A stretch of DNA of 64,000 bases. It comes from Candidatus Woesearchaeota archaeon (GTDB lineage Archaea; Nanobdellota; Nanobdellia; Pacearchaeales; GW2011-AR1). Both the position numbers and the translations under genes were made by a program. Under the pieces are notes generated by a model that saw only the letters and a program-made list of their open reading frames with translations, searched no databases and had not been told where the DNA came from. Below, in pieces: positions 2,554 through 54,216 of the stretch. Numbering within the stretch: the first letter of the stretch is position 1; the number at the start of each line of letters is the position of its first letter. The stretch spans positions 24,056 to 88,055 of the forward strand of contig CAYIGH010000001.1 in NCBI GenBank assembly GCA_964362915.1, given 5' to 3'.

Positions 2554-2569
2554 ATCAAGTTTTATTATA

Positions 2570-4218: not shown

Positions 4219-4235
4219 AAGGGAAAATTAAGAAT

Positions 4236-5859: not shown

Positions 5860-5866
5860 ATCTAAC

Positions 5867-7392: not shown

Positions 7393-7423
7393 CCTTTATA
7401 AACTAAGTCTTTTAGTTATTTCT

Positions 7424-7980: not shown

Positions 7981-7982
7981 AA

Positions 7983-8522: not shown

Positions 8523-8523
8523 A

Positions 8524-9991: not shown

Positions 9992-10022
9992 GATTTAAAA
10001 AATATCTTAACATCAAATTAAA

Positions 10023-16344: not shown

Positions 16345-16397
16345 TATTATACTCCCATTATATAAAACTTAATAAACATAGAGACTAATTTTGTTTA

Positions 16398-19390: not shown

Positions 19391-19442
19391 ATGAAATTTA
19401 AATATAATGAAATGATAGTTAAAAATATGGAAAGAGAAGAAA

Positions 19443-19757: not shown

Positions 19758-19944
19758 TTCAACAATTCTTTACTAATCTTCTACTATATGATTTATTTTT
19801 ATAAACTCGTCATTAATGATAACTAATGAACCAAATAATCTATTCCTTATATCTATCATATAGAAGCTTAGTACCTGAAACTTTTAAATGTTTCTTTAAT
19901 TAAATAATCAATAACTTCTTAAATATTGGATATTAATTAACCTG

Positions 19945-20466: not shown

Positions 20467-20467
20467 T

Positions 20468-21831: not shown

Positions 21832-21871
21832 ATTTTCTATATATATAAATAGATTATAAATATTTGTATTT

Positions 21872-27914: not shown

Positions 27915-27915
27915 T

Positions 27916-28404
27916 TTATCTGCTTAGAGTAACAAGTGCCTCAAATTGATCTCTTTTTGTCTTTAGTTCTATTCTATTCTCTCTAACTGGAATGCAAAAA
28001 AATTCATTAGTCTTTACATGCTCTAATTTTATTGAGGATAGCGAGGAATCGCAGGCCTTTTGAGGCGGATAGAGAAAAACATTTCCATTGCTATTTATAA
28101 ATGCTTTTTTTATATTATTATATTCTTGAGGGGCCTGAGCTATATTGCCGAAACATACTAACTCAATTCCTGAAGGGATTGTTGCAGGATATTTTTCATT
28201 GGGAAAGATGTCCTGATGAATTGTTGACTGCCATGCTTCTTCTATGTATTCTTCTAAATCATTATAGAAAAGGCTGATTTCTGTGCATTTACTAAGTGAA
28301 ATAAAGCTTCTAATTACATAGAAAGCAATTCCGACTATAGCAATTATAACGATTATTGAAAAAATCATACTAAAAGATATGCTAAACTGGCCTCTTTTTT
28401 GCAT
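27916..28404 (-). CDS. class III signal peptide (archaeal type IV pilin-like) protein 1
   Basis: N-terminus MQKRGQFSISFSMIFSIIVIIAIVGIAF, a KRG|Q prepilin-peptidase-type site followed by a hydrophobic helix. Confidence 0.6.
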   Translation of the reverse strand: MQKRGQFSISFSMIFSIIVIIAIVGIAFYVIRSFISLSKCTEISLFYNDLEEYIEEAWQSTIHQDIFPNEKYPATIPSGIELVCFGNIAQAPQEYNNIKKAFINSNGNVFLYPPQKACDSSLSSIKLEHVKTNEFFCIPVRENRIELKTKRDQFEALVTLSR

Positions 28405-33176: not shown

Positions 33177-35474
33177 ATGGATAAAATAGCAAATATAACT
33201 CTATTCTCTTTTATAGGATTAATATCTTTTATAATCATATTTTCTATCTTCTTTGCCACTTCTCAACAAACAACCATCGAAGAAGAGATTTTTGTTCCTT
33301 CTGTACAAAATAACCAAGAGATTATCTATTATGATTATAAATTTTCAAATACGTCTGGAGTTATTATATTAACGAAAAGAGAAGCATCTTGTTTTTGGAA
33401 ACCTGACGATATTGACGATGGTTGGAAAAATTGCGAATCCATCTTTGAAATAGAGAATCAAAAGGGGGATAAGCCTATTATAAGTTTTCCCTTCATTAAT
33501 TTTAGTTTTGCTAAAAATAATGTTAGAAACCATAGTATATATTTCTCAAACACATATACAATAATAAATGAAACATATAATAATTTTTCAAAAACTTATT
33601 TTGGAGATGTTATTGAGGAGGTTATACAACTTAAAAAGAGACAATTTGTGAATTTTACTTCTCTACCGAACTATCTCGATACTTCAAAACCTTTTGCTAT
33701 CAAATTAACATTTGAGGTTCCAAAATATGAAGAAAATATATTTAATTTTACTATTTCAGGAGAAGAATTTATTGGTTTTATAGACCCGGATATTAATAGC
33801 TGTAGTTTCTTAGGGGTCCCCAATACAGTTTATACATTAGTCATTAATGTTAGTTCGTTAGGCACATGTTTTACGATACTGGCAAATAATATTACATTAA
33901 ATGGTAACGGTTATCATATTAATTATAGTGTAGCGGGAACTAGTAATAGATATGGGATTTATATAAAAGGCGCAAATCAAACTACTATAAAGAATTTTAG
34001 AAAAATATTTGAGGAGAATAGTAATGGAATTCATAAGTATGGAATATATTTTGATAAAGCGCATGAAGGGATCGTAAATAATGTTACTATAGAAACAATT
34101 GGAATTTCAAGTGATGGTATAAGAATAAATAATGGTAATGATACAAAAATAAACAATACTAAAGTAATTACTCTTGGAGATAGTGCGGTGGGCATTTATT
34201 TATACGGCTCGAGCTCATCAATTATAAATAATAATAATATCACCACCAATAAGACTTCTGCGAGAGGAATTGAACTTGGTGCAAGATCAAACTTTAATAA
34301 ATTAAGCAATAATATAATTACTACAGAGGGCAATGAATCAACGGGTATTTTATTAGATTCTTCTTCAATAAATATTATCAATAATAACATTATTAGAACA
34401 TTCAATAATAATGCGGAGGGCATCAACTTTGCTGATGCACAAAATAATACAATAAATTATAGTATTGTTACAACTCTTAGTAATAATGCAAGTGGAATTT
34501 TTATAGGCGGTTCGTCAGATGGTAATCTAATTTATAACTCTTTCTTCAATTCATCTTTAGCAAATGATATTTTATTCTTTTGGACCTCTGCTGGAACTCT
34601 TAACCTTACTAATGTAACACTTGCTAATAACAATGTAAACTTTAACCCATTATCAACATCACGACTTAATGTTCACTGGTACTTTGATGCACAAGTTAAT
34701 GATAGCTCGAAAAATCCTCTTGAAAATGTGAATGTTTCTGCATGGGATATTAATAATGTACTAAGATTTAGTGATTTAACAAATAATATCGGTAGGATAA
34801 AACAGCAAGCCCTCCTAGAGTATGTACAGAACAATACTCAAAAAATATATCATACCAATTATACGATAAATGCAACAAAAGATGGTTTCACAGAATCAAA
34901 AAGCGTTAATCTAACTGCAAATACATTTATGACATTTATTCTTCCAACTACCATCATTCTTACATCGGATAATATTGTAGAAGACGGTGATATTAACTAT
35001 GAAATTAGCTCCGGATTATACAAAAGAGATAAAACTTCTATTACTATAGAAATAGGAAATGCATACTATTATATCTCTAGAAGCTATATTGAATTTAATA
35101 CGTCTTCAATTCCAGATAGTGCTATAATCAAAAATGTATCTTTAAATATATCTTTTGATACATTAGGTACTAGGAATTGTACTATTAATGAAGTAAGTGA
35201 ACAACCTTCCATTATATCAAATCAGACTCTTTATATAGATATTGGTAATGGTACTACATATATAAATAATGATGACTTTTGTAGGACAGGTTCGTCAACT
35301 AAATCAAAAGTTGATCTTGGAGCTAGTGCCAATATTGATCTTGAAAATTTACTTTCATCAAATTGGTTTGGTATAGGTATTAAATGGGATAATGAAATAA
35401 CTGCGGCTACTACTGCTTTAACTAATGCTTCTGAAAGCTCCTCATCACCACTCCTTACTGTAAGTTATATTTAA
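33177..35474 (+). CDS. membrane-anchored surface protein with right-handed parallel beta-helix (PbH1) repeats
   Basis: N-terminal TM. Asn-rich repeated ~22-aa units (NNVTIETIGISSDGIRINNGNDTKINNTKVI...GIELGARSNFNKLSNNIITTEG...). Confidence 0.6.
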   Translation: MDKIANITLFSFIGLISFIIIFSIFFATSQQTTIEEEIFVPSVQNNQEIIYYDYKFSNTSGVIILTKREASCFWKPDDIDDGWKNCESIFEIENQKGDKPIISFPFINFSFAKNNVRNHSIYFSNTYTIINETYNNFSKTYFGDVIEEVIQLKKRQFVNFTSLPNYLDTSKPFAIKLTFEVPKYEENIFNFTISGEEFIGFIDPDINSCSFLGVPNTVYTLVINVSSLGTCFTILANNITLNGNGYHINYSVAGTSNRYGIYIKGANQTTIKNFRKIFEENSNGIHKYGIYFDKAHEGIVNNVTIETIGISSDGIRINNGNDTKINNTKVITLGDSAVGIYLYGSSSSIINNNNITTNKTSARGIELGARSNFNKLSNNIITTEGNESTGILLDSSSINIINNNIIRTFNNNAEGINFADAQNNTINYSIVTTLSNNASGIFIGGSSDGNLIYNSFFNSSLANDILFFWTSAGTLNLTNVTLANNNVNFNPLSTSRLNVHWYFDAQVNDSSKNPLENVNVSAWDINNVLRFSDLTNNIGRIKQQALLEYVQNNTQKIYHTNYTINATKDGFTESKSVNLTANTFMTFILPTTIILTSDNIVEDGDINYEISSGLYKRDKTSITIEIGNAYYYISRSYIEFNTSSIPDSAIIKNVSLNISFDTLGTRNCTINEVSEQPSIISNQTLYIDIGNGTTYINNDDFCRTGSSTKSKVDLGASANIDLENLLSSNWFGIGIKWDNEITAATTALTNASESSSSPLLTVSYI

Positions 35475-36615: not shown

Positions 36616-37148
36616 TTTATGAATCCGCTGAAGATTCTTATCTTTTGAGAGAAGAAGTTCTAAACTATTCTAAGGGAAAAAGAGTTTTAGATGTGGGAAG
36701 TGGTTCTGGGATTCAGGCTCAAGCAGCCTCAGATGCAGGGGCTAAATCTGTTTTGGCTGTTGATATTGACGAAGAAGCTGTTAATGAATTAAAAAAGAAA
36801 GGAATTAAAGTGAGAAAGTCTGATTTATTTTCAAATGTGAAAGGTAAATTTGATTTGGTTGTTTTTAATCCTCCTTATTTGCCTATGGATAAAAGAGAGG
36901 ATAAAGCAAGTGCATTGAATACTTCTGGCGGAAAGAAAGGAGATGAAATTATAATTAGATTTTTGAGAAATGTTAAAAAATATTTAAATAAAGATGGAAT
37001 TGTGCTGATTGTTATTTCTTCTTTGACTCCTAGAAAGAAGATATTGGGGGTTTTGAAAAGAGAAGGATTGAAAAAACAAATTGTTTCAGAAAAGAAACTT
37101 TTTATGGAGAGTTTGGAAGTTTGGGAGATAAGTCGTTTAGAGTTTTAA
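36612..37148 (+). CDS. HemK/PrmC-like N5-glutamine methyltransferase (Mtq2-type)
   Basis: VLDVGSGSGIQAQAAS (motif I) and VVFNPPYLP (NPPY) motifs. Confidence 0.7.
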   Translation: MIYESAEDSYLLREEVLNYSKGKRVLDVGSGSGIQAQAASDAGAKSVLAVDIDEEAVNELKKKGIKVRKSDLFSNVKGKFDLVVFNPPYLPMDKREDKASALNTSGGKKGDEIIIRFLRNVKKYLNKDGIVLIVISSLTPRKKILGVLKREGLKKQIVSEKKLFMESLEVWEISRLEF

Positions 37149-37508
37149 TCTGTGAATCGCCTGATCCTGCCAGAGCTTTCTATAAAAATAAAGATAGTAT
37201 GAAAGTTCTGAAGAGCTTTTTGCAAAGATTATTTTGTTATTTGTTATTATTTCATTTTTTATATAAAGTGGGAGCAATTCAAATATATGGATGTCGTATT
37301 TTGGATTTTTTGCCTGAATTGATAGTGTTTTTTGATAAATTTCTTTTGCTTTTTTTATATTTCCAGTAACAATGCATATATCAATGTCGCTCCTTTGTGT
37401 TGATTTTCCGTTTATATAAGAGCCATAAAGAAGAACTGCAAGAACTTTATTTTTAAATTTGCCAAAATCTGTTTTGATTTGCTCTATAATTTCAGATTGC
37501 ATTTTCAA
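37137..37508 (-). CDS. nucleotidyltransferase-domain protein (MntA-type antitoxin)
   Basis: LAVLLYGSYINGKSTQRSDIDICIV, the GS...DxD motif. Confidence 0.65.
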   Translation of the reverse strand: MKMQSEIIEQIKTDFGKFKNKVLAVLLYGSYINGKSTQRSDIDICIVTGNIKKAKEIYQKTLSIQAKNPKYDIHIFELLPLYIKNEIITNNKIIFAKSSSELSYYLYFYRKLWQDQAIHRLKL

Positions 37509-37884
37509 GTTTTTTTAATATTTTTTTAATTTGGGGAAGGAGGATTTGAATTGATTCTTTAGCTATTATATCGTCTGTTTTGTTGTATTTATGAATAATC
37601 CTGTTTCTTAAGCCATTTGCATCTTCAAGGATTTTTGCTTCATTATCTCCTATAATTTTAAGCTGCATTAATTTTTCAATATTTTTATAGTCATCCTCTA
37701 CTAATTTCTCCTTGTCTTTTAGAAGCATGGCGGCTATATCTGAAATTACTTCTACAATCTCTTGAAATGCTTTATATGATGCTAGCTTAGATTTTTCATC
37801 CTGAGAAGAAATCCATTCTTCTATTTCTATTATCCTCTTTTCTGCTAATTCAATTTTTTCCAGGTATCTTTTCTTTCTCTCCAT
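37492..37884 (-). CDS. HEPN-domain protein (HepT/DUF86-type toxin)
   Basis: R-x4-H motif GLRNRIIHKY. Overlaps the downstream MNT gene by 17 nt. Confidence 0.6.
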   Translation of the reverse strand: MERKKRYLEKIELAEKRIIEIEEWISSQDEKSKLASYKAFQEIVEVISDIAAMLLKDKEKLVEDDYKNIEKLMQLKIIGDNEAKILEDANGLRNRIIHKYNKTDDIIAKESIQILLPQIKKILKKLENAI

Positions 37885-37973: not shown

Positions 37974-38768
37974 CTATCTTAACTCAGATTCAATAGCTTG
38001 TTGAAATGCAGAGAAAGGCTGGGCTCCGCTTATAAGCCTTCCATTGATAAAGAAAGCAGGTGTACCTTGAACCCCGTCACGCTGTCCTTCATCCATGTCT
38101 TTCTTAACAAGAGCTGCCATTTTTCCAGATTGAAGACAGGAATCAAATTGCTGAATATTTAACCCTATTTCATTAGCCCATTGTCTAAAACTTCCTATAC
38201 TTAAGGCTTGCTGATTTTCAAATATTTTATCATGCATTGCCCAATATCCGTCGTTTCCTTTTTGTTCCCCTGCACATCTTGCAGCCTCAGCAGCCTTTTG
38301 TGCATTAGGATGAAAACTTAAAGGAAAATCCTTATACACTAATTTTACTTTCCCGCTAGTGATATATTCACTCTCAATCTGAGGCAATGTTTCAGCATAA
38401 AATTTCCCGCAGAAAGGGCATTCATAGTCAGAATATTCAACCATAATTACAGGAGCATTTTCATTTCCTTTATAAGGCGCACCTTCAATATTTATTTTAG
38501 CCATGGCGGGCTCTGATGGGGGCTCTTGGATAGATGGATTAACTATATTCTCTTCTTGGATAACATTTCCTGTTATACTTCCGCCATTTCCAGAAAAGAA
38601 AACCCCATAGCTATTAATCAAAGTTAAAATAAATGTAGCAGAAACAAGAACAGTTAGCAATTTCATTCTGTCAAGATTTTTTAAATTATAAAAAAAATTG
38701 CTGTTTACTTTAACATTAGATGTGTCTGCTATAATTGATTCTTTAGCTTCTATTCTTTCTTCTTCCAT
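37974..38768 (-). CDS. DsbA-like thiol:disulfide oxidoreductase, membrane-anchored
   Basis: CPFC active site inside a thioredoxin-fold context (YSDYECPFCGKFY). N-terminal TM. Confidence 0.75.
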   Translation of the reverse strand: MEEERIEAKESIIADTSNVKVNSNFFYNLKNLDRMKLLTVLVSATFILTLINSYGVFFSGNGGSITGNVIQEENIVNPSIQEPPSEPAMAKINIEGAPYKGNENAPVIMVEYSDYECPFCGKFYAETLPQIESEYITSGKVKLVYKDFPLSFHPNAQKAAEAARCAGEQKGNDGYWAMHDKIFENQQALSIGSFRQWANEIGLNIQQFDSCLQSGKMAALVKKDMDEGQRDGVQGTPAFFINGRLISGAQPFSAFQQAIESELR

Positions 38769-38806
38769 TAAATTATACTAAAATGCCCCTTTTTATATTT
38801 TTTTGC

Positions 38807-41800
38807 TTAATATCCCATAAATATCTTTCTTCTCATATGTACTTTTAAATAAATAACCACAATGACAGCAACTACAATCAATGATAAACTAATCCATATT
38901 ATGCCACTAAGTGCTCCTCTGTTCTCAGAAGGTATTTTTTCCTGCTCTCCTGCTTCAGAGCCACTATCTACCCCTTTTTCTCCGCTTTCTATTGGTGGTT
39001 GACTTAATTCTCCCTCTGATTCAGATGTTGTTGCATTCTCTTTCTTTGGTTTTGAAACACTGGCCCCTCCAGAGCCCCCACCACTACTACTTCCTCCAGA
39101 ACTTCCTCCTGAAGAAGTGGATTCTCTATATGTGGAAAACTCGCAGAATGGAATCTGCCATATGCAATTTGTCGAATCAATTAAAGTTGCTTCAGATGTT
39201 CTATCAACACAATTTGCTCCATTATTATCACAATGAAACAATTGATTACATGTTCCGCTAAATGGTATCTTTACTCTGCAGACCTCTGGATATAAGTTAT
39301 TTATTATCTTGTCTCTTGTCTCAGAAGTTAATCCTGCGTATGTTGAAGTATTAATAATTGAACCTGCCGTGCTAATTGTCCTAACCTTATCATTCAATCC
39401 TGTTTTAGTCAATGAGGCATTAATAAATTCAAAGTAATTACTACCATCGGTATTATTGAGCTTAATATTAATACGTCTTCCTTCTGTATAGTTAGTTTTC
39501 CTGCCAGCATTAGCTCCACATACTTGTCCTTGTATATGCTCATAAACGTTATTTTGATCAATATCATATGATACTGTCCAGCCAGATGGTGCCTTAATCC
39601 TAGTCACAAAACTGCAGAAACCGCATTTATTATTTAGGGTAGCAGTGACGAATGAACTACATTTGCTAATAGCGCATTTATTTTTGTCATCACAAGCTTT
39701 TAGCTTATAATAATAAGTCGTCCCATTAACTAGATTATAGCGCAACGAACGAACTCCGCCGTCATTGTAAATATCTGCTTTATGCCATAACTTATAATCT
39801 CTTACATTGGTGCTAAGCACTCCAACATCATTAATTGTTGCATTTAATGTAATACATCTTGAATCATTTCCGTAAAACTCAAGGCTCCCATTTGCAGGCT
39901 TATTGGTATCATACATAATTAAAGCAGAGTCTGGATATTCTTCTATCTTAACGCCTACAACTTGCGGCGTTTTAGTATCAGTATAATTCGCGGCATTTAC
40001 ACCTGTGCTAGAGCATACAGATAGAAAATCACAATCCCAATCAAAGCAATCTATATTGCCGTCGTTATCATTGTCTATATTATCAAAGCAATCCTCATAT
40101 TGCACATATCCCTTCCTTAATATGTCCTCAAACTTTGCTGCGTCTGCTCCATAGTCAAAACAGCCTGCAATTTCAAAGTCAACAGCTCCAGGTGTAGTAT
40201 AACCAGGGCCAGCTGTATCAGTTGGAAATGTAACATTGCCAGTTCCAGGATTCCCAATTGTTGCAGCATATACTCTCATATCTTTTGTTGAATCATATAA
40301 TGTAGGGAATCTATTCAAGTCTGCCTTTTGTACAGCTATCATAGGCCCGCCAATTTCAGAACACATTAGCTTCTTCCATACATTTAATTTGATATCACTA
40401 GCTGCCCACTGGGAATTTTCGCATGTATAAGCATTAAATGTTTCTACTGCTTTTTCTTTAGTAGCATTCCATTCAGAGGCATATCTAAATCTAAATTCGT
40501 ACCCTTTAGCAGAAGAATTATGGTTTAATTCACATCCTCCGCTAGTTAAACCATCTGTATCCAAATAAACAAAGAATATTACTGTATCATTTCCGTTGCC
40601 AATTCTTTCAATTCCGTAACTCGTTAATTTTTCTTTGTTGCATAAAGAGGCATTAGTAAAGTCCAACATATTAGCTCCAAATCCAAATCCATCTCCCATA
40701 TCTTTCATTCCAATACCACAAATATCTACACTTCTTTGACTTATCCCTGCCTCAGGACAATTATCTACTGCTATTGGCACAGGAGCCCCTGTTTCTATAC
40801 TATTAAATGATTCAACTGTTCCAGCTGTATTGCACCATCCAGTAACCCATTTGCATCCACTTCCACATGCTCCCTGAGTTGTAGCATTAAAGCAGGTTGG
40901 CTCACATCCATAAGAAGTAGCATTACAATATAGATTTGCGTTACATAATGTGGCATTATTTACTAAAGTTGTATTGCTCCAGCATTGGTCCATGACATTA
41001 GTACAGTAATTTCCATTAGAATTCCACCAACATCCATTAGTAGCATTACATCCTACAGCCACAGATGTATAACTCCAGCATTCTTTGCTCCAATCAACTT
41101 CGCATCTTGGGTTAGATTCTGGGAACCATCCGCAACTGATATTTATAATAGTCTTATTCGTGCAGAATGTTTGATTACCATTATATTTCCAGCATTCAGC
41201 CCCGGATGCTCCTCCAACTCCACCTCCTCCCACAACGGAGCCTCCAGAAAATCCTCCTCCTTTAGGATCACACCATCCAGGATTATTCCACTTACATCCT
41301 GATATTGCTGCGCAATTTGTTTGGTTATTAGAACTTGTTGCATTATAGCAAGTATTTGATTGCTGTTCTTCACACCAGCCATTTTCTGCCTTCCATAAAC
41401 ATCCTGAAGTAGTTGTACAGCTAGTTGAAGAAGTTATATTAAAGCATGCTGGCTCACATGTTCCGCCTCCTCCTCCATAATCTCTCCAATTGCAGCTAAC
41501 TTGAGTAACACCATTACAACTAGCTTTAGTTGTTTGGCTCCAGCATCTGTCAAAATTATTTGCACACCATGCGCTGTTAATTCCTCCAAATGTTTCATTT
41601 CTCCACCAACACCCGTTATTTTCACAATTTGATTGAGCATTATAATTCCAACAACTAGTGCTCCAGTTTACTTCACAATGGGGTTGTGACCATGTATCAA
41701 CTCTCCAACTGCATCCAGCAGTAGTGCTACATGAGGAATTTTCATATTTCTGCCAACAACTCTTTGGCTTGAAATCATTATGGTCACACCATCCTCCATC

Positions 41801-44740
41801 TGTTTTACACCATTCAGTTCCTTTTCCAAATCCATCACACCATGTGTCATTTGTCCAGCCACAATCAGTAGTGCTATAACATTGACTTTGATTCAAATTA
41901 AAGCACTTTTCTCCTATACTCCAGTCTCTTTCACACCAACCGCTTCCTGTTCCATTGTTCCATTCACAATTAGAACTTTTATTAGCATAGAACCTAAAAC
42001 TAACATAATAAATATCATTTGAGCCTCCTCCGCCAACCATATATGTATTGTTAGTAAAGTTAATTGTTTGTCTCGTATAATCTGCTGTAAAGTTTCCACT
42101 GCCTAGAATAGTCCCGCTTTTATTTGTCATATTTACGCTTCCGCTTATCCATCCTGTTCCCAAATTACCTAACTGGAATGTCTTGCTTTGATTTATATTG
42201 TTTGCAGACAATCTTGCAGATGATATATTTAACGTTTCATTAATAACAGTAGTATCTCCTAAACATTCTACTTCAGAATTGTCATATCTCCAACAAGAAC
42301 TTCCTTTAAAATCACACCATCCTTTTGGATTCCATGTATCATTTACCCATTCACAACTATTAGTTTCACATTGAGATTTAGTTGTCCAGCCAAAACAATC
42401 TCCTTCTACAAATCCGCACCATGTATCTGAATAACAACTTGGATCGCCACAATCTACTAGTGCATTATTATTGTTGTCTATACCATCCCAGCATATTTCA
42501 ACGTCCTCTCCAATATTTTGCACACAGCTCCCATCATTATCAGTTCCCTGCCATTTACAGCTTCCAGTAGAATTCAACGCGCTTCTCCCTTCATTAGCAC
42601 ACTTATCTCTTGTCTTGCATCTGTCACATGCGTCAAGGCATGTTTTTTCTCCTTTATCTGCGCAATATCCACCTGTTAAGGTGCTATTCTCTATAATCCA
42701 TTTACATCCTCCACCATTTGAATTTGCTTTGCTCTCTGAACAGAAGCATGCTGGAGTCAAACAATTTCCTGCAGAACTTCTTGAGGCATTATTCTTAGAA
42801 TCTCCAAGAAATGTACAATCTCCACATACTGAATTACAATCACCAGCCAAACCTTTTTTCCATTGTTCTTTTGCTTTGCAATATCCTATTCTATTTGGAG
42901 CACTAGTATCTGCTTCAAATTCACAATATCCTAATTTGCTTCCTATACAAGCTGATTTAGCATTTGTTGCATTAACTAAATTACCGTTACCATCTTTTAT
43001 TTCGCATGCAAAGCAAGCTTTATCACAATTTTCTTCATCATCAAATTTGTATTCGCATCTCCCTGTAGGAACAGAAACACTTCCCTCACAATAATTCTCT
43101 ATAATCCACTTTCCTCCAGCAGCCTCACAATTCCTTTGATTTTCAATCTTTACAATATTCTGTGTACTATTCCCAAAAACATCAGTTACTTTGAATTCGC
43201 ATTTGTTTGTTGAATTATTCCATTTACAAGGCATGTACCAAGGGTCTCCTGCAATTTTCTCGCAATTTGAGCTTGTTTCTGCATCTTCACATGCCTTCTC
43301 GCCATTTGGAGTCTGATCCAATTGATCAAAACAGCTCCTTGACTGCCTGTTCTCCGCACAAGTTCCATTCTGCCAGCTGCAACAAGTGCTTAAAGAAGCG
43401 ACATTGTTGCATAAATCAGATTCATTTATTTGATAACAAAATATACCCTTTGCATTAATTGCAGTTCCATTCACCTCATTTGTATTTTTGCATAAACTGC
43501 TAGTATAATTACACCCTATTACGCTATTGCACTTTGTAGAATTTGTATCAAAAATGTAACATCCTGGATTCCATTCATTTAAAATGCTACCATTGATATT
43601 CACAAAATCGCCGCTTCCAAAAGTCGGAGTTGTGCAATTTCCTCCTTTAGTTGAATCCTTCCAATCATTCGCCTGCCACCAACAATAAAATGTATCATAA
43701 CATGCTTTTTCTGTGGTTACATTAGCACAGCTTGTAGAAGAAACCTCCTTATAGCACCATCCATTTGTCGTATTTCCAGTTGGATTACCACTCCATTTAC
43801 ATGTAATACCATAAGAGTTTTGCTCGCATTTAGACTGATTTCCTAGTTTAAAAGAGTCCCAATTCCAGCAATTAACCTCTTCGCATGATCCTGTAGTATT
43901 ATAAGATTGCCATAGACAGTTTTTTTTGTCCTTACAACTAGATTCTGTATTCATATCATAGCAAGAATCTGTAACGCACAAATTATTGATACTCTGCCAT
44001 TTACAAGATTCTCCTAGAGTATTATTTACGCAAGCTGTTTGATTAGTATAATCGAAACTCGAACAGCCTTTTTGTTGACAAGATCCCCATTTCCATTCAC
44101 AATTTATCCCTTGAGCAGATTCACATGCTGTTTTATTCGAATATAATGTACTATCCCAACAATTATTTTCTCTACAATAACTTCCAGAAGCACCCCATGT
44201 ACAATTAATTCCTCTCCAATCTAGCCCTGAGTTACAAGCTGATTGTGACGTATAAATATTACAGCCTTTTTCAATACATTGTCCCCATCCGCATCCTGTT
44301 GTATTCTTGCATGCTGCTTCAGTAGCAATACCCCAACACCCTACATTCAGGCCACCTGTAACTTGATAGCATTGCCCGCTCCAACTACACGATTTGTTAA
44401 AGTAATTATTCTCACATTGAGTTTGATTAGTAGCTGAGAAAGCCCAACAACTTGCAGTTGTACACCAAGAACTAGCTGTTCCATTTGTCCATGTACAATT
44501 TTTCCCTGCAATGGTTGTTGTCGTACATGAAGACTGATTAGCCAAACTCCAGCAATTTAATTCTTCACACCAGCTTCCCCAAGTATCATTTCTCCACAAA
44601 CATCCATTTGAAAGCGTGCAAGTGGATGAAGAAGTATAAGTCCAGCAACTTGCAGCGATAACAAAACTCAAAGATAAAATTATACCAACTGTTATAAAAG
44701 ATAGGATTGTAAAAAATCTAGACTCTTTTAACACCATCAA
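38807..44740 (-). CDS. giant (1977 aa) Cys/Trp-rich extracellular protein with N-terminal signal/TM and C-terminal TM anchor
   Basis: Recurring C-x-W / NCW / CxWxxxxW motifs and very dense NxS/T sequons. Gly/Ser linker near the C-terminus followed by TM IIWISLSLIVVAVIVVIYL and a basic tail. Confidence 0.65.
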   Translation of the reverse strand: MMVLKESRFFTILSFITVGIILSLSFVIAASCWTYTSSSTCTLSNGCLWRNDTWGSWCEELNCWSLANQSSCTTTTIAGKNCTWTNGTASSWCTTASCWAFSATNQTQCENNYFNKSCSWSGQCYQVTGGLNVGCWGIATEAACKNTTGCGWGQCIEKGCNIYTSQSACNSGLDWRGINCTWGASGSYCRENNCWDSTLYSNKTACESAQGINCEWKWGSCQQKGCSSFDYTNQTACVNNTLGESCKWQSINNLCVTDSCYDMNTESSCKDKKNCLWQSYNTTGSCEEVNCWNWDSFKLGNQSKCEQNSYGITCKWSGNPTGNTTNGWCYKEVSSTSCANVTTEKACYDTFYCWWQANDWKDSTKGGNCTTPTFGSGDFVNINGSILNEWNPGCYIFDTNSTKCNSVIGCNYTSSLCKNTNEVNGTAINAKGIFCYQINESDLCNNVASLSTCCSWQNGTCAENRQSRSCFDQLDQTPNGEKACEDAETSSNCEKIAGDPWYMPCKWNNSTNKCEFKVTDVFGNSTQNIVKIENQRNCEAAGGKWIIENYCEGSVSVPTGRCEYKFDDEENCDKACFACEIKDGNGNLVNATNAKSACIGSKLGYCEFEADTSAPNRIGYCKAKEQWKKGLAGDCNSVCGDCTFLGDSKNNASRSSAGNCLTPACFCSESKANSNGGGCKWIIENSTLTGGYCADKGEKTCLDACDRCKTRDKCANEGRSALNSTGSCKWQGTDNDGSCVQNIGEDVEICWDGIDNNNNALVDCGDPSCYSDTWCGFVEGDCFGWTTKSQCETNSCEWVNDTWNPKGWCDFKGSSCWRYDNSEVECLGDTTVINETLNISSARLSANNINQSKTFQLGNLGTGWISGSVNMTNKSGTILGSGNFTADYTRQTINFTNNTYMVGGGGSNDIYYVSFRFYANKSSNCEWNNGTGSGWCERDWSIGEKCFNLNQSQCYSTTDCGWTNDTWCDGFGKGTEWCKTDGGWCDHNDFKPKSCWQKYENSSCSTTAGCSWRVDTWSQPHCEVNWSTSCWNYNAQSNCENNGCWWRNETFGGINSAWCANNFDRCWSQTTKASCNGVTQVSCNWRDYGGGGGTCEPACFNITSSTSCTTTSGCLWKAENGWCEEQQSNTCYNATSSNNQTNCAAISGCKWNNPGWCDPKGGGFSGGSVVGGGGVGGASGAECWKYNGNQTFCTNKTIINISCGWFPESNPRCEVDWSKECWSYTSVAVGCNATNGCWWNSNGNYCTNVMDQCWSNTTLVNNATLCNANLYCNATSYGCEPTCFNATTQGACGSGCKWVTGWCNTAGTVESFNSIETGAPVPIAVDNCPEAGISQRSVDICGIGMKDMGDGFGFGANMLDFTNASLCNKEKLTSYGIERIGNGNDTVIFFVYLDTDGLTSGGCELNHNSSAKGYEFRFRYASEWNATKEKAVETFNAYTCENSQWAASDIKLNVWKKLMCSEIGGPMIAVQKADLNRFPTLYDSTKDMRVYAATIGNPGTGNVTFPTDTAGPGYTTPGAVDFEIAGCFDYGADAAKFEDILRKGYVQYEDCFDNIDNDNDGNIDCFDWDCDFLSVCSSTGVNAANYTDTKTPQVVGVKIEEYPDSALIMYDTNKPANGSLEFYGNDSRCITLNATINDVGVLSTNVRDYKLWHKADIYNDGGVRSLRYNLVNGTTYYYKLKACDDKNKCAISKCSSFVTATLNNKCGFCSFVTRIKAPSGWTVSYDIDQNNVYEHIQGQVCGANAGRKTNYTEGRRINIKLNNTDGSNYFEFINASLTKTGLNDKVRTISTAGSIINTSTYAGLTSETRDKIINNLYPEVCRVKIPFSGTCNQLFHCDNNGANCVDRTSEATLIDSTNCIWQIPFCEFSTYRESTSSGGSSGGSSSGGGSGGASVSKPKKENATTSESEGELSQPPIESGEKGVDSGSEAGEQEKIPSENRGALSGIIWISLSLIVVAVIVVIYLKVHMRRKIFMGY

Positions 44741-44939
44741 TTACCCTCTTTTTCCTAATGTTTAATCGATTTGTTAATATATAAATCTATTTGTTCTTTT
44801 GGCTTTGAGATTAATTATGCTCTGTATATGAATTGAAAACTTTAATGATGTTGTCTATATCTTTGATAGTCTACTTCGAAGATAGAAATATTCTTAATCC
44901 TTTGGGATGATAATTCAAAAGGTTTAAAACCTTTATTTC

Positions 44940-46412: not shown

Positions 46413-49187
46413 GTGGTTTTCATATCAGAGCATATTAAAATGGAAGAGATAACTGAAAAAAAAGAGTTCTTGGGAGATAAAGCTGGAGAGGCAGCACCAG
46501 CTCAATATGAAATTATTAAAATAAGAAAAGATAAAGTTATTAAATTTTTGAAAACCGGATATAATTGGCTCAGTTATATTGCTTTGGCTTTTATCGTCTT
46601 TCTAGCTGTGAAAATTAGAACGAGAAATCTTCCTGGCTTAAAAGATGTAACCACTGGGACATGGACTTTAGGGCCTGATCTAGACCCCTTTCTATTTTTA
46701 AGATGGGCAGAATATATTGTTGAACATGGTAAATTGTTTGCTGTTGATACAATGAGATACGTGCCTTTGTTTTATAAAACAGGTAATGAGCTTTTATTTC
46801 ATCCGTATATGATCGCTTGGTTTCATAAAATTGCTGTTTTATTCGGCAGTGAATCAGTGACGCATTCTGCAGTATTATATCCTGTTTTTATGTTTGCTCT
46901 AACTGTTATTGCTTTTTTCTTATTAACTAGAATAATATTTGTTGATTCTATAGGAAAATTAAATGCAAATATAATTGCTTTGATTGCTTCATTTTTTTTA
47001 ACTGTGCTGCCTATCTTCCTTCCAAGAACAATTGCCGGTATCCCTGAAAAAGAATCTCCGGCATTTCTATTTATGTTTCTGGCTCTTTATTTCTTCCTTT
47101 TTGCATGGAAATCGCAAAATATTAAGATTAGATTATTAATGGCTATTTTAGCTGGATTTTCTGCTGGAGGGATGGCTTTGATTTGGGGAGGTTATAATTA
47201 TTTATTTCTTATATTAAGCGTTTCTATTTTCTTTGCTTTTCTTTTAGGAAGTGTTGATAAAAAAAGATTTTATGTGTATTTAACTTGGATAATCTCCACT
47301 TCTTTCGTAATGTGGTATTTCTCTGTCCGATACCCGCTACTTTCTTTAATGACAAGGGGAACTGTCATAGTCGCCTTTATAATTTTAGTTCACTTTATAA
47401 TCTTTAATACACAACTGAAGAAATATTTTGAATCAGATAGATTTTCAAAATTTCCACCAAATATTATAAGCATAATTATTGCTATTATTATTCTGGCTGT
47501 AATGGCTTCTTTTGTCTTTGGATTTAATTATGTCCCGAATACTGTTAAGGGAATTGTAGATAGCTTGATCAGTCCTATAAATACGAGGCTTATCCAGACT
47601 GTTGCAGAGAACAGGTCCCCTTTCTTTTCAGAATGGGTTGGTAGTTTTGGGCCTTTTTTGAGGAATATTCCTATATTTTTCTGGCTATTTTTTCTAGGGT
47701 CTATAATTCTTTTTTATCAATCAATAGATATGCTGCGCAAGAAAGAGCGTTTTTATCTTACAAGCGCCTATATTTTTTTAGTTTCTGCTATTACTTTTAG
47801 CAAATATTCTGGAAATAGCAGATTCAATGGTGAAAATGGCATCAGCCTAACTTTCTACGCGTTAGGATTTATTATATTTTTAGTCATTGCTGGATTTTAT
47901 TATTATAATTATTATAAAAGAAAAGAAATTGATAAATTAAAGAATTTTGAACTTGGCTTTCTATTTGTTCTAACATTCTTTTTATTAACACTTGTTTCTC
48001 TAAGGGGAGGAATTAGACTCGTCATGGTACTGACTCCTTCGATTTCTATTATTGTGGCTTATTTTATGGTGGCTAGCTTTGATTATGCCAGAAAAATGAA
48101 AGGAGATATTTTAAAGATTCTTGTATGGGGTCTTGCTGGCATAATTATATTGGCTGGCGTATTTTCTGGCTGGAAATTTTATAATGAAATAAATGCACAA
48201 GCCGCTGTTTATATTCCATCAATTTACACGCAACAATGGCAGAAGGCAATGGCTTGGGTGAGAGAAAACACTCCTGAGAATGCTGTTTTTGGTCATTGGT
48301 GGGATTATGGATATTGGCTGCAATCTATCGGAAGGAGAGCTACCATATTAGATGGGGGCAATGCGCAAGGTTATTGGAATCATTTGATGGGAAGATATGC
48401 ATTAACAGGACATAATGAGAGAGAGGCACTTGAGTTTTTATATGCCCATAATGCAACTCATTTTCTAATTGACTCAACAGATATCGGGAAATATAGTGCA
48501 TTTTCCAGTATAGGAAGTGACACAAATTATGATAGAGCTAGCTGGTTGCCTGTATTTGTAAAAGATAAGAATCAAGTCCAGGAAACTAAGAATTCAACTA
48601 TTTTTATTTATGGCGGAGGAACTTCTCTTGACTGGGATATAAAATACCAGATCAATGAAACTAATGTATTTTTGCCAGAAGGAAAAGCAGGGTTGGGAGC
48701 TATATTAATTGAACAAAATAGCAATGGCGAATTAGCAACCCAACCAGTTGGAATATTTGTATATCAAAATCAGCAATATAGGCTTCCTCTGCGATATGCT
48801 TTTGCTAATGGCAAGCTTTATGATTCTGATTCTGGAATAGAGTCTGGTGTTTTCTTGATGCCTGTTGTTAATCAAGATGGACAGGGTCTTAGTATAGAAA
48901 AAGATGGGGCATTAATTTATCTTTCCAAAAAAACTGTTAAATCACAACTTGCCAGGCTTTATTTATATAAAGAAAATGGTCCTTATTTCAAATTAGTACA
49001 TAGTGAAGATGATGCTGTTGTTGCTTGGCTCAAAACTCAGAATCCTGGTGTCGAGGACATCGTACTTTTCAATGGTATAAGGGGACCAATAAGAATCTGG
49101 GAAATAAATTATCCATCTGATATTGAATTAAAAGATGAGTATTTAAGCACAGTTTATCCTACTAAAGAATTGGAACTTTTAAGATGA
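46413..49187 (+). CDS. aglB: oligosaccharyltransferase AglB (STT3 homolog)
   Basis: 924 aa with a 13-TM N-terminus and the WWDYGYW catalytic motif. Confidence 0.85.
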   Translation: MVFISEHIKMEEITEKKEFLGDKAGEAAPAQYEIIKIRKDKVIKFLKTGYNWLSYIALAFIVFLAVKIRTRNLPGLKDVTTGTWTLGPDLDPFLFLRWAEYIVEHGKLFAVDTMRYVPLFYKTGNELLFHPYMIAWFHKIAVLFGSESVTHSAVLYPVFMFALTVIAFFLLTRIIFVDSIGKLNANIIALIASFFLTVLPIFLPRTIAGIPEKESPAFLFMFLALYFFLFAWKSQNIKIRLLMAILAGFSAGGMALIWGGYNYLFLILSVSIFFAFLLGSVDKKRFYVYLTWIISTSFVMWYFSVRYPLLSLMTRGTVIVAFIILVHFIIFNTQLKKYFESDRFSKFPPNIISIIIAIIILAVMASFVFGFNYVPNTVKGIVDSLISPINTRLIQTVAENRSPFFSEWVGSFGPFLRNIPIFFWLFFLGSIILFYQSIDMLRKKERFYLTSAYIFLVSAITFSKYSGNSRFNGENGISLTFYALGFIIFLVIAGFYYYNYYKRKEIDKLKNFELGFLFVLTFFLLTLVSLRGGIRLVMVLTPSISIIVAYFMVASFDYARKMKGDILKILVWGLAGIIILAGVFSGWKFYNEINAQAAVYIPSIYTQQWQKAMAWVRENTPENAVFGHWWDYGYWLQSIGRRATILDGGNAQGYWNHLMGRYALTGHNEREALEFLYAHNATHFLIDSTDIGKYSAFSSIGSDTNYDRASWLPVFVKDKNQVQETKNSTIFIYGGGTSLDWDIKYQINETNVFLPEGKAGLGAILIEQNSNGELATQPVGIFVYQNQQYRLPLRYAFANGKLYDSDSGIESGVFLMPVVNQDGQGLSIEKDGALIYLSKKTVKSQLARLYLYKENGPYFKLVHSEDDAVVAWLKTQNPGVEDIVLFNGIRGPIRIWEINYPSDIELKDEYLSTVYPTKELELLR

Positions 49188-50200
49188 GTATAAGTATTTT
49201 ATTTGTACCAATCCTGGCAAGTTTTTTTGTAACTCTATTCATAATACCTTTTTGGATTAGAAAGGCAAAACAAATAGGCTTAGTCTGGACTGATATTAAT
49301 AAATTAAATAGCCAGAAGGTAGCAGGGTCTGGTGGAATTATGGCTATGTGCGGTTTTGTTGTTGGTGTACTTTTGTATATTGCTTATGTTGTATTTATTC
49401 TTGCAAATTATAATTCGCATTTAATAGAAACTCTGGCTCTATTGAGCGTTATATTAATTCTAACAGGAGTAGGATTAGTTGATGATTTATTAGGATGGAG
49501 AAAGGGCGGATTATCAAGGAGGTCTAGAATAATAATGGTATGTTTCGCTGCTATTCCTTTAATTGTTATTAATGCTGGAAAGAGTATCGTGGCTATTCCT
49601 TTTATAGGAACAATTGACTTGGGTCTTATTTATCCTTTAATTATTATCCCCATAGGAATTATTGGTGCGACAACTACCTTTAATTTTCTTGCGGGTTTTA
49701 ATGGTTTGGAAGCTGGTCAGGGAATTCTATTGCTAACGGCTTCTGCATTAGTATCTTATTTTATGGGGAACAGCTGGCTTAGTGTTATTGCTTTGTGTAT
49801 GGTGGCATCTTTAATAGCATTCATATTTTATAATTTTGATCCTGCTATTGTATTTCCTGGCGATTCTCTAACCTATAGCGTTGGAGGATTGATAGCTGCT
49901 GTTTCTATATTGGGAAACTTTGAAAGAGTTGCAGTATTTTTCTTTATACCTTATATTATTGAATTTGTATTGAAAACTAGAGGGAGATTGATAAAGCAAA
50001 GTTTCGGAAAACCTCAAAAAGATGGAAGTTTGGATTTAAGATATGATAAGTTGTATGGACTAGGGCATGTTGCCATAGTTGGCTTGAAAAAAACAGGTAT
50101 AAAGCCAACTGAAAAGAAAGTTGTATTCTCAATCTGGATATTTCAAATTATAATTATAATTCTAGGATTTATTATATTTAAAAGAGGAATATTTGGATAA
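49184..50200 (+). CDS. glycosyltransferase family 4 (MraY/WecA/GPT-like) dolichyl-phosphate sugar-1-phosphate transferase
   Basis: Polytopic. DD motif (VDDLLGW) in a cytoplasmic loop. Translationally coupled to aglB. Confidence 0.5.
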   Translation: MSISILFVPILASFFVTLFIIPFWIRKAKQIGLVWTDINKLNSQKVAGSGGIMAMCGFVVGVLLYIAYVVFILANYNSHLIETLALLSVILILTGVGLVDDLLGWRKGGLSRRSRIIMVCFAAIPLIVINAGKSIVAIPFIGTIDLGLIYPLIIIPIGIIGATTTFNFLAGFNGLEAGQGILLLTASALVSYFMGNSWLSVIALCMVASLIAFIFYNFDPAIVFPGDSLTYSVGGLIAAVSILGNFERVAVFFFIPYIIEFVLKTRGRLIKQSFGKPQKDGSLDLRYDKLYGLGHVAIVGLKKTGIKPTEKKVVFSIWIFQIIIIILGFIIFKRGIFG

Positions 50201-51405
50201 TGTTGATTAATAAGGGTCTTCTAAGGGGGAGTCTGATTCTATTGATAGCTTTTAATGTTTATAATGCTCTTAATTTCTTTTTTCATTTTGCAATGGTTAG
50301 ATTATTGAGTGTTGTTGAATATGGTATTCTTGCTTCTTTATACTCTATTATATATGTGCTTGCTGTATTTACAGAGTCTATTCAAACAGTTATTACTAAG
50401 TATACAACAAAAGAAGAAAATAAAGGAAAATTGAAAAATATTTTGAAAAAAGGAATCAAAAAATCTTTCTTTGTTTCTTCAGGACTCTTTATCTTATATC
50501 TCATAATTTCTATACCTCTCTCTTTTATGCTAAGGATTAGCTATCCTTTAATGGCCCTGAATGGTTTAATGATTCTATTGGCATTTTTAACGCCTGTGAG
50601 CAGAGGAGTTTTACAAGGAAAGAAAAGATTTGGCTTTCTTGGAATAAATATGATTGGTGAAGCTTCTATAAAATTTATTTTATCATTAATTCTTGTAATG
50701 GTTGGCTGGGCTGTTTATGGTGCTATTTTAGGAACGATAGTTGGGATTAGTATTTCATTAATTCTGTCCTTCGATGGTTTAAAAGATATAATAAGAACAA
50801 AAGAAGAAAAGGCCGATACTGAAGGAATTTATGGATATACTAGGCCTGCTTTTTTCATAATATTTGTAATATTGGCATTTTACAGTATTGATATTCTTAT
50901 AGCTAGGATTTTTTTCTCAGAAGAAATGGCTGGCTCTTATGCTATTGCGTCTATTCTTGCTAAGACAATATTTTTTGGAACTCAGCCAATAAGCAGGGCA
51001 ATGTTTCCTATATCTGCCGAGAATTCAATGGAAAAAAGTAAGTCAGATAACATATTTATGAATGCATTAGCTATCTTCTGTGTAGGAATAGTTATTGTAT
51101 TGGCCTTATTTTATTTCTTTCCTGATTTTATTTTAAAAATATTTTCTGGAAAAGAAATTCCTGAATCCGTAAGCATTTTATTTTATTTAGGTATAGCAGT
51201 TAGTTTAATTTCATTCGCAAATTTGGTTTTGTTGCATAAACTATCTTTGGGAAAAGTCAAAGGATATATATATTTGTTTATTTTCCTTATTTTAGAAATA
51301 TTCTTGTTAAGCTGGTTTTCTAAAGATTTGATGCAGTTTTCCATCGCTTTTATTACCGCGTCTGCTGCTTTTCTGTGGGGAAGTGTTGTTTTGATTAGCG
51401 AATGA
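50200..51405 (+). CDS. polysaccharide biosynthesis/flippase (MOP/Wzx-like) membrane protein
   Basis: 401 aa with ~12 TM segments. Sits in the glycosylation cluster. Confidence 0.5.
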   Translation: MLINKGLLRGSLILLIAFNVYNALNFFFHFAMVRLLSVVEYGILASLYSIIYVLAVFTESIQTVITKYTTKEENKGKLKNILKKGIKKSFFVSSGLFILYLIISIPLSFMLRISYPLMALNGLMILLAFLTPVSRGVLQGKKRFGFLGINMIGEASIKFILSLILVMVGWAVYGAILGTIVGISISLILSFDGLKDIIRTKEEKADTEGIYGYTRPAFFIIFVILAFYSIDILIARIFFSEEMAGSYAIASILAKTIFFGTQPISRAMFPISAENSMEKSKSDNIFMNALAIFCVGIVIVLALFYFFPDFILKIFSGKEIPESVSILFYLGIAVSLISFANLVLLHKLSLGKVKGYIYLFIFLILEIFLLSWFSKDLMQFSIAFITASAAFLWGSVVLISE

Positions 51406-53490: not shown

Positions 53491-54216
53491 CTAATTCTTA
53501 AACTTCCAATAGAGCAAAGTCCAAATGGCTTGGAGGCCGTCTTTCCAATTTATCTTCTTGCCTTCCTCTATTGATCTTGGATTATAGGAGATAGGAATTT
53601 CTTTTATTTTAATACCTTGTTTAAGAATTCTTGCTGTTACTTCTGGTTCGAAATCAAAGTGATTTGCCTTTATATCAATTTTCTTTATTATTCCTGATTT
53701 GAAAACCTTATAGCAGGTTTCCATATCTGTTATTTTCGAATTGTATAGGATTTTAGTTAAAAATGATAAGAATTTATTTCCTAGAAAGTATATTTTATAC
53801 ATTGGCTTGTGTTCTTTTAAAAATCTAGAACCATAGATGACCTTTGCTCGATTATTAATTATTGGCTTTATTAGTTTTTTATAATCTTCTGGATCATATT
53901 CAAGATCAGCGTCCTGAATTGTTATCATATGTCCTGTTGCTAATTTTATCCCTTCTTTAATTGCTGAGCCTTTTCCCCCATTTTCTTTCGAGATTAGTTT
54001 GTATTCTTCTGTTTTATTTTTCTTTTTGTTTTTTATATATTTTTCAATTACTCTTTTTGAACCATCTTTGCTGCCGTCGTCAACTATGATTATTTCTTTT
54101 TTTATCTTTAGATTTACTTTGGACAGCTTATCTAAAATTTTTTCTATTGTTTTTTCTTCGTTATAAACTGGGACTATTATTGATATTTTCATTTTTGAAG
54201 GCAAGATAAAGGGCAA
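53491..54216 (-). CDS. glycosyltransferase family 2 (dolichyl-phosphate sugar synthase-like)
   Basis: ISIIVPVYNEEKTIEKIL...IVDDGSKDGS. The real start is probably the internal MKISII codon (~54192). It still overlaps the upstream gene's 3' end slightly. Confidence 0.75.
   Translation of the reverse strand: MPFILPSKMKISIIVPVYNEEKTIEKILDKLSKVNLKIKKEIIIVDDGSKDGSKRVIEKYIKNKKKNKTEEYKLISKENGGKGSAIKEGIKLATGHMITIQDADLEYDPEDYKKLIKPIINNRAKVIYGSRFLKEHKPMYKIYFLGNKFLSFLTKILYNSKITDMETCYKVFKSGIIKKIDIKANHFDFEPEVTARILKQGIKIKEIPISYNPRSIEEGKKINWKDGLQAIWTLLYWKFKN

Follow-up and report, generated by a model that had tools for sequence, protein, structure and literature searches.

The stretch of DNA analysed here, referred to as the window, comprises 64,000 nucleotides (64 kb) of contig CAYIGH010000001.1 from Candidatus Woesearchaeota archaeon (assembly GCA_964362915.1). 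It contains two minus-strand open reading frames (ORFs) situated side by side, a DsbA-like gene (37974-38768, 264 aa) and the gene of a giant protein (38807-44740, 1977 aa counted from TTG), both of which were confirmed as the original prediction had placed them. The giant ORF opens with TTG and possesses an ATG at codon 2 (44737), the likely start codon; GAGGG is located 6-10 nt upstream of this ATG, and a TTTATATA box lies at 44778-44785. The GC content at third codon positions (GC3) of the giant gene is 0.251, compared with a window median of 0.239; hence, its locally higher GC derives from the amino-acid composition with no sign of foreign origin, and horizontal transfer was rejected as its cause. 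The window is identical, save for a 10-N scaffold gap, to a contig of the Hainich aquifer metagenome (ERZ1292627, well H51, 0.1-um fraction), where the splitting of the DsbA gene into two calls is an artefact of this gap. The features of the gene pair, with their evidence, are as follows.

38807-44740, minus strand: gene of the giant, predicted surface protein (ORF, translation, upstream sequence, homologues)
44651-44740, minus strand: signal peptide or N-terminal hydrophobic segment of the giant, residues 1-30, ending SFVIAAS/CW (translation, hydropathy)
43628-44653, minus strand: repeat block 1, residues 30-371, ten copies of the 4-Cys/1-Trp repeat (regular expression, hidden Markov model (HMM) self-search, AlphaFold2 (AF2))
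42503-43627, minus strand: non-repetitive Cys-rich middle, residues 372-746 (28-member alignment)
42416-42502, minus strand: acidic double-disulfide motif 1, residues 747-775, EICWDGIDNNNNALVDCGDPSCYSDTWC (NF033662, 7plp)
42263-42400, minus strand: repeat copies at residues 781-826, counted with block 2 (regular expression, HMM self-search)
41981-42253, minus strand: lineage-variable, Cys-poor, sequon-dense insert, residues 830-920 (composition bins, alignment occupancy)
40826-41980, minus strand: repeat block 2, residues 921-1305 (regular expression, HMM self-search)
39131-40825, minus strand: conserved membrane-proximal module, residues 1306-1870 (AF2, Foldseek, cluster search)
40013-40099, minus strand: acidic double-disulfide motif 2, residues ~1548-1576 (NF033662)
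38921-39130, minus strand: Gly/Ser/Glu-rich low-complexity stalk, residues 1871-1940 (translation; weakly conserved in the alignment)
38810-38920, minus strand: C-terminal transmembrane (TM) helix and basic tail, residues 1941-1977, beginning GIIWISLSLIVVAVIVVIYLKVHMRRK (hydropathy)
38769-38806, minus strand: spacer of 38 nt between the two genes, A/T-rich, with a AAATATAAAA element (sequence)
37974-38768, minus strand: predicted membrane-tethered DsbA-like thiol:disulfide oxidoreductase, 264 aa (PF13462, PF01323)
38604-38666, minus strand: N-terminal TM anchor of the DsbA-like protein, residues ~35-55 (hydropathy)
38409-38420, minus strand: CPFC active site, residues 117-120 (motif, Pfam, Protein Data Bank (PDB) alignment)
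37989-38480, minus strand: DsbA domain, residues 97-260 (Pfam)

The giant contains 155 cysteines (7.8%), 79 tryptophans (4.0%), and 71 NxS/T sequons, and because every other ORF of the window has at most 8 cysteines, its Cys/Trp richness is far beyond chance. The sequons occur at one per 28 residues (3.6 per 100 aa), which is 1.9 times the 37 ± 5 found in shuffles of the same composition (z ~6.7). In the bin of residues 801-900, 8 sequons stand beside 3 cysteines, and the insert at residues 830-920 has an alignment occupancy of just 0.39. Hydropathy agrees with the predicted membrane segments: the N-terminus is hydrophobic from residue 7 onward, and a C-terminal TM helix starts at residue 1941, with KVHMRRK behind it. 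The original prediction overstated the composition, with ~200 cysteines and a sequon every few residues; of the three spacings that it named, CxW is found 26 times, NCW just 3 times and CxWxxxxW 6 times, and the actual unit is a different one. These features support the predicted export and C-terminal anchoring of the giant, with a potential for ~77 disulfides and with sequons that are enriched and in part conserved.

The actual repeat unit, defined by regular expression and HMM self-search, is C[WFY]-x7-9-C-x5-8-C-x-W-x5-10-C, with a length of ~30 residues. At least 19 clear copies and several degenerate ones are situated in two blocks, at residues 30-371 and at residues 781-826 plus 921-1305; ten copies constitute block 1, and block 2 together with residues 781-826 holds at least nine clear copies in addition to the degenerate ones. 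A sequon is located just ahead of the second Cys in 11 of 19 copies, as read off the repeat alignment. The copies are ~32% identical among themselves, and Tandem Repeats Finder detects no more than two trivial 12-nt arrays; hence, the array is old, and a recent expansion at the DNA level was rejected. In an AF2 model of residues 28-375, based on a 38-sequence alignment (mean predicted local distance difference test score (pLDDT) 90.3, predicted template modelling score (pTM) 0.69), the unit is formed by a short helix followed by a β-hairpin.

The claim that the repeat matches no named domain also holds. The repeat finds no match in Pfam even at E<=10 and none in NCBIfam, its profile gives two weak matches alone among PDB sequences (E=0.32 and 5.7, unrelated proteins), and the best Foldseek match of the repeat-block model in the PDB has an E of 5.4, along a 43-column stretch of plexin A2. 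A likeness in kind exists to PSI domains, which, too, are small extracellular modules stapled by disulfides and marked by C-x-W(C). However, the PSI domain contains 8 Cys in ~50 residues, and the repeat contains 4 Cys in ~30 residues. Assignment to the PSI family (PF01437) was rejected, since no Pfam PSI match exists at E<=10 and the fold matches are not significant; the likeness is one of flavour, not of membership.

Next to the repeat blocks, the giant contains further Cys-rich elements. In residues 372-746, the cysteines are nearly all invariant in the alignment; this region has no Pfam match at E<=10, and its matches to the repeat HMM are weak or partial. Two acidic double-disulfide motifs, visible by eye at residues 747-775 and ~1548-1576, share with the teneurin C-rich domain and NF033662 the pattern C-x-D-x-x-D-N-D-x-D-x-x-x-D-C-x-D-x-x-C, in which four cysteines accompany an acidic cluster. 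The match of these motifs to NF033662 has an E of 3.5e-8 with 33 bits, under the 41-bit cut-off, and with the family profile the C-rich domain of teneurin-4 (7plp) is matched at E=0.0024. In teneurin-4, the compact dimer conformation is described as calcium-stabilised (PMC9058538). The motifs of the giant probably bind Ca2+. They are two short stretches among its 1977 residues, and the remainder has nothing in common with teneurins.

The membrane-proximal module (residues 1306-1870) is constituted by β-sandwich domains, the second acidic motif, an FN3-like domain, and a C-terminal β domain. It is the best conserved part of the giant and is modelled by AF2 with pLDDT 82 and pTM 0.79. Foldseek returns generic FN3/cytokine-receptor/Ig-type matches (best E 4.8e-5), and as these generic FN3/Ig-like matches are the only ones, a function read from the fold was rejected. 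Homologues P0049, P0085, and P0103 match TIGR04213 (PGF-pre-PGF; 1e-17 to 1e-21) where the giant has its Gly/Ser/Glu stalk, and the giant itself has no TIGR04213 match at E<=0.1.

A protein search with the giant gave 145 matches. Among the best 120, all with E=0, most are 1850-2130 aa long and the identities are 35-68%; in their best local alignments, most span 93-100% of the query and ~30 span 38-63%, and a few records are partial (1129-1830 aa). They derive from metagenome-assembled genomes labelled Pacearchaeota, Woesearchaeota, Nanoarchaeota or 'archaeon', and nearly all are annotated as hypothetical, with a few as 'PGF-pre-PGF domain-containing'. Across these 120 homologues, the median is 152 Cys, with 3.2 sequons per 100 residues; a hydrophobic N-terminus exists in 104 and a C-terminal TM helix in 115. 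Across 28 aligned, diverse members, the invariant cysteines number 128 of 155, with 137 kept in at least 90% of the sequences, and 36 of the 71 sequons are situated at positions bearing a sequon in at least 50% of the members. The giant belongs to an unnamed DPANN family with full-length homology and a conserved Cys and signal/TM architecture. A literature search, of incomplete coverage, yielded no description of the family, so an earlier description is possible.

The giant shares 79% identity with its closest relative (L081) across 1993 columns, and S13, S4, S11, and RpoD from the same two contigs are 67-72% identical; in more distant pairs, the giant is 41-58% identical, below the 55-79% of S13/S4/S11/RpoD. 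By these comparisons, its evolution is unusually slow for a surface protein. A near full-length presence across the lineage, together with an evolution about as slow as that of ribosomal proteins, makes the giant likely to be central to the build of the cell or to its contacts. In one locus (L042), the giant (132-6104) is followed by a tandem large paralogue (6507-10589, >1361 aa, 4% Cys) that runs off the contig end.

Furthermore, the membrane-proximal module reaches beyond this family. A search against 1.84 billion cluster representatives gave 244 proteins (clusters at 50% identity), 203 of them at E<=1e-10; in the 10 clusters looked up, any name given was Woesearchaeota or 'archaeon' (DPANN/archaeon), and the others were nameless. 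The signal peptide, the module, the stalk, and the TM helix with its K/R tail are kept, and the part ahead of the module varies. Close members contain 6-9% Cys; distant members contain 2.4-4% Cys and 4-6 sequons per 100 residues, with Ig-like domains (Big_13, DUF11) instead of the repeats. A wider DPANN superfamily thus has the β-sandwich module as its core, with distal parts that are either Cys repeats or Ig-like domains. Proteins of surface contact or adhesion are laid out in this way, with a constant base near the membrane and a distal part that can be exchanged.

The neighbouring DsbA-like protein matches PF13462 Thioredoxin_4 at 2.4e-39 (135.6 bits, cut-off 23.2; profile positions 5-164 of 165) and PF01323 DSBA at 7.4e-23 (81.8 bits, cut-off 25.6). 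It contains CPFC at residues 117-120, a TP cis-Pro at 236-237, and a second Cys pair, C165 and C211. The closest solved chains, Corynebacterium 'DsbA' 4pwo/4pwp (E ~5e-22) and Bacillus subtilis BdbD 3eu3, match it as a full-length DsbA-type thioredoxin fold, and its CPFC and TP align with ECPFC and the GTPAF cis-Pro loop of 4pwp. The single TM segment (~35-55) is preceded by basic residues, with none in the following 15 residues; hence, the predicted topology is N-in/C-out with the catalytic domain outward. The Pfam match, CPFC, TM anchor, and this topology all agree with the CPFC thioredoxin-fold domain outside the membrane that had originally been described. Gram-positive tethered or lipoprotein DsbA homologues likewise combine an N-terminal membrane tether with a domain outside the cell. 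Compared with these homologues, the protein differs in its archaeal host, in having no DsbB, BdbC or VKOR gene nearby, and in that its best NCBIfam match, the Rcas_1661 lipoprotein family, is below cut-off; its activity is a prediction. The family is very broad, with >5685 matches, many of them bacterial and some from DPANN archaea. The assignment to the family is secure, and the neighbour is an ordinary MdbA/BdbD-type membrane-tethered DsbA; the interest of the locus lies in the giant and its undescribed repeat.

In the closest clade, the giant is followed directly by DsbA in four independent contigs, the relatives being the sister species (L001, the same as L081), L082, and L083. In L081, the DsbA ATG overlaps the last codons of the giant by 8 nt (ATGGATGA), an arrangement that has the look of classic coupled, operon-like genes. 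Around the persisting pair, the flanks of these relatives are not the same as in the window, which indicates that the pair stayed together through rearrangement. Beyond this clade, the linkage is nearly absent. Among 78 species-representative giant loci, 58 possess at least 1.2 kb of downstream flank, and in just 2 of the 58 (L001 and L018) does the next gene downstream belong to the DsbA family. L005 and L014 carry an intact DsbA 3-6 kb from the giant on the other strand. In a reciprocal sample of 80 metagenomic loci obtained via DsbA relatives (36-61% identical), an adjacent giant occurs in none of the 48 with at least 1.5 kb of upstream flank, and across all 80 one giant is found, 6.3 kb off on the other strand. 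In the distant L018, whose giant is 48% identical, the CxxC of the downstream protein (15887-16480) is replaced by SSED, and this protein may be a redox-dead, chaperone-like derivative.

For genomes of 0.7-1.4 Mb (10.64898/2026.05.13.725050), one randomly placed DsbA per genome would give, in the 944 kb of flanks, ~1 case within 10 kb and ~0.03 directly downstream on the same strand; the observed numbers are four nearby and two adjacent. Since the cases are few and related by descent, this excess is suggestive at most. The pairing is local to a genus-level clade and not a conserved dedicated module. Unlinked DsbA genes in relatives, which the original prediction had named as evidence against itself, are largely what is found (2/58 downstream, 0/48 reciprocal). 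Of its proposal that the DsbA is the folding catalyst of the giant, the adjacency and the 8-nt overlap in the closest clade remain, and a linkage extending beyond that clade does not.

The surroundings of both genes are fluid. All-against-all ORF clustering of 79 giant loci yields no neighbour in more than 9 of 79, and a conserved gene neighbourhood was rejected as a clue to the function of the giant. The sole loosely recurring neighbourhood is an S13-S4-S11-RpoD cluster within 10 kb of the giant in L001, L005, L007, L008, and L024; in the window, this cluster (8524-10721) lies ~28 kb from the giant. A HepT-like RNase and MNT nucleotidyltransferase toxin-antitoxin pair (37137-37884, minus strand) is located directly downstream of the DsbA gene, and the sister species has ribosomal protein genes in its place and a HicAB pair further on. 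Around the 80 DsbA relatives, the recurring neighbours are a membrane-tethered MarR-like protein with a C-x6-C loop (17/80), a DsbD_2-cupredoxin membrane protein (11/80), a small 2xCxxC membrane protein (10/80), and a 5-TM CAAC protein (9/80); examples among loci L084-L163 are L110 8609-10585, L117 7402-7950, and L149 2684-3172. They could be redox partners or a metal-related module, and no homologue of them exists in the window. Six small proteins of 162-318 aa (21100-22423 and 25953-28404, minus strand) each have a hydrophobic segment at the N-terminus, contain cysteines in even numbers (4, 4, 6, 6, 8, and 4), and match no Pfam or NCBIfam family credibly; pilins or similar secreted proteins with disulfide bonds are possible identities, in which case they would be further DsbA clients.

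Further envelope-related features of the window are the following.

46413-51405, plus strand: N-glycosylation island with AglB/STT3 (WWDYG), a family 4 glycosyltransferase (GT4), and a flippase (Pfam, motif)
17456-19390, plus strand: PACE-CTERM 'putative S-layer protein', 644 aa (NF033506, E=5.6e-172)
19945-20466, plus strand: pacearchaeosortase (NF033505, E=2.1e-57)

AglB (46413-49187) contains the canonical WWDYG at residue 629 and starts 1.7 kb from the start of the giant on the opposite strand, with the GT4 and flippase genes next to it. The island placed ~2 kb away by the original prediction is thus present and slightly closer; however, in none of 78 relatives do AglB, prefoldin or SpoIIM come within 10 kb of the giant, so the proximity in the window is incidental. 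A 765-aa right-handed β-helix (NosD-like) protein at 33177-35474 (plus strand), with an N-terminal hydrophobic segment and 37 sequons, surpasses the giant in sequon density (4.8 vs 3.6 per 100 aa) and probably counts among the major clients of AglB as well. A second STT3/PMT_2-like multi-TM glycosyltransferase without WWDxG (54161-56086, minus strand) adjoins a family 2 glycosyltransferase (53491-54216, minus strand), apart from AglB.

The 644-aa protein matches NF033506 ('PACE-CTERM-PROT, putative S-layer protein') over its full length and contains a signal peptide, Ig-like CARDB/NPCBM_assoc domains, a C-terminal TM segment, 4 Cys, and 3 sequons. The gene order at 17456-21103 (plus strand) is S-layer candidate, 104-aa ORF, pacearchaeosortase, and DedA-family protein, the last of which (20468-21103) has weak, below-cut-off matches to models of the undecaprenyl-phosphate transporter UptA. 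This gene set marks the organism as Pacearchaeota-type. The first working hypothesis, that the giant is the S-layer protein, was displaced by this separate candidate and its sortase, which make the giant probably not the S-layer; simultaneously, the giant matches no Pfam or NCBIfam S-layer model. Neither homology to the S-layer candidate nor a match to its C-terminal signal was found in the giant. A PACE-CTERM signal on the giant was rejected, since at E<=10 its C-terminus fails to match the section of NF033506 that represents PACE-CTERM. One distant relative gives E=0.03, and the TM helix of many superfamily C-termini begins with [ST]-W-[ILV]-W; such proteins might also be sortase substrates.

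In overall layout, the giant resembles archaeal C-terminally anchored surface glycoproteins, including the PACE-CTERM protein: a signal peptide, β-sandwich domains, a stalk, and a TM helix with a basic tail, with N-glycosylation machinery in the same genome. Unlike the Cys-poor and sequon-poor PACE-CTERM candidate, the giant is 3x longer and disulfide-rich by prediction. The SPEARE proteins of Nanohaloarchaeota, for which a role in cell contact is proposed, are likewise very large exported proteins of small-genome archaea; they contain protease, adhesion, and nuclease-type domains and are not known as Cys-repeat proteins. No homology between them and the giant emerged, with no search aimed at it.

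From this evidence, the giant gene most likely encodes a surface glycoprotein conserved among DPANN archaea of the Pacearchaeota/Woesearchaeota type, anchored as a type I membrane protein and standing on the cell as a long spike or fibril, not as the S-layer itself. The fuller reading, a membrane-anchored DPANN surface spike or fibril with a general DsbA oxidase encoded beside its largest client, is favoured here with slightly more confidence than doubt. A Sec signal would carry the giant across the membrane, where ~77 disulfides would staple the ectodomain, comprising the at least 19 repeats, the Cys-rich middle, and the two teneurin-like acidic motifs. AglB would glycosylate many of the 71 sequons, and the β-sandwich/FN3-like module, the Gly/Ser/Glu stalk, and the TM helix with its basic tail would hold the protein on the cell. 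The DsbA, with CPFC facing outward, would act as a general thiol oxidase of exported proteins, with the giant by far its largest client. The two genes would have become an operon-like pair in a genus-level clade, and the nearby AglB island would be coincidental. Within this reading, contact of the giant with a conserved partner or substrate is the preferred function, held at somewhat short of an even chance, and a structural envelope role is a doubtful candidate.

Several points weigh against the spike-and-oxidase reading. The disulfide state, the glycosylation, and the surface display of the giant are all inferred, and the contact or adhesion role is drawn from the architecture alone. For an adhesin, a conservation at the level of ribosomal proteins is out of the ordinary, and it would suit a structural component of the envelope, too. 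No DsbB, VKOR or DsbD-type partner (multi-TM CxxC) exists in the 64 kb window, so the DsbA may act either as an oxidase or as an isomerase/reductant. The DsbA linkage is absent in most relatives of the giant. Moreover, the 'putative S-layer' label of NF033506 is itself a prediction.

A bolder extension, regarded as rather doubtful, holds that the repeat is a new disulfide-stapled fold, that the giant is the principal near-universal surface organelle of these archaea, that its oxidative folding proceeds with a non-canonical re-oxidation of DsbA, and that it is possibly a second pacearchaeosortase substrate via its W-rich TM signal. The non-canonical re-oxidation would be implied, if this extension is true, by the sequence examined, which contains no DsbB/VKOR-type partner.

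An unlikely alternative, close to the original prediction, makes the DsbA a dedicated, co-evolved folding catalyst and the giant a host-interaction factor of a host-dependent archaeon, with the AglB island completing a maturation locus. The above-chance adjacency, present here and in the closest relatives, the translational coupling suggested by the 8-nt overlap, and the DsbA-family gene directly downstream in the distant L018 are consistent with such a catalyst, and there is a resemblance to adhesion molecules in the long rod of repeats and its FN3-like and teneurin-like motifs. However, just two of 58 loci are adjacent, one of them without CxxC, and none of the 48 reciprocal loci has an adjacent giant. 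The DsbA family is very broad and has other typical neighbours, and AglB, prefoldin, and SpoIIM keep away from the giant in the 78 relatives. Furthermore, host-specific surface factors diversify, unlike the giant with its near-ribosomal rate.

A structural envelope component, either a part of the S-layer or its canopy or anchor partner as in two-component archaeal S-layers and with no contact organelle, is also given a low probability. The giant occurs lineage-wide and apparently once per locus, its length, signal peptide, TM helix, stalk, and sequons are conserved, and its conservation is comparable to that of housekeeping genes; β-sandwich modules, which it possesses, are typical of archaeal S-layer proteins. 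Against this, the giant has no homology to any Pfam/NCBIfam S-layer family, and the window encodes a separate full-length PACE-CTERM candidate with its own sortase. S-layer proteins are usually poorly conserved in sequence, and the giant is well conserved. Meanwhile, tblastn of the loci of relatives places no S-layer candidate, sortase or β-helix protein near the giant.

That the adjacency is meaningless, the DsbA having landed there in one clade while serving other clients (pilin-like secreted proteins, or a metal/cytochrome pathway), agrees with the fluid neighbourhood, with the DsbD_2/cupredoxin and MarR-like membrane proteins commonly beside DsbA relatives, and with the several small exported even-Cys proteins as possible clients, but it is quite improbable, as the 8-nt overlap of stop and start seen in the sister species speaks for co-expression, the pair stays intact where both its flanks change, the independent L018 case and two near-adjacent cases exceed chance, and a general exported oxidase would meet the 155 exported cysteines of the giant anyway.

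Pacearchaeota-/Woesearchaeota-type archaea are abundant in groundwater and sediments, uncultivated, and thought to be attached to other cells, and to our knowledge almost nothing is known about their surfaces. The giant gene takes up ~0.4-0.8% of a 0.7-1.4 Mb genome and gives a concrete target for surface studies of uncultivated DPANN archaea. In addition, its repeat adds a new disulfide-rich unit for structural classification, and the locus offers a test case of extracytoplasmic oxidative folding in archaea with minimal redox machinery.

Two minor features complete the window. A 910-aa protein at 22506-25238 (minus strand) bears 13 sequons and, late in its sequence, a hydrophobic segment (~residue 812); it matches no family and is another putative, uncharacterised envelope protein. 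At 551-723 (plus strand), an Rfam tRNA match over 173 nt (46.6 bits, full model), not called by ARAGORN, is probably an intron-containing tRNA gene.

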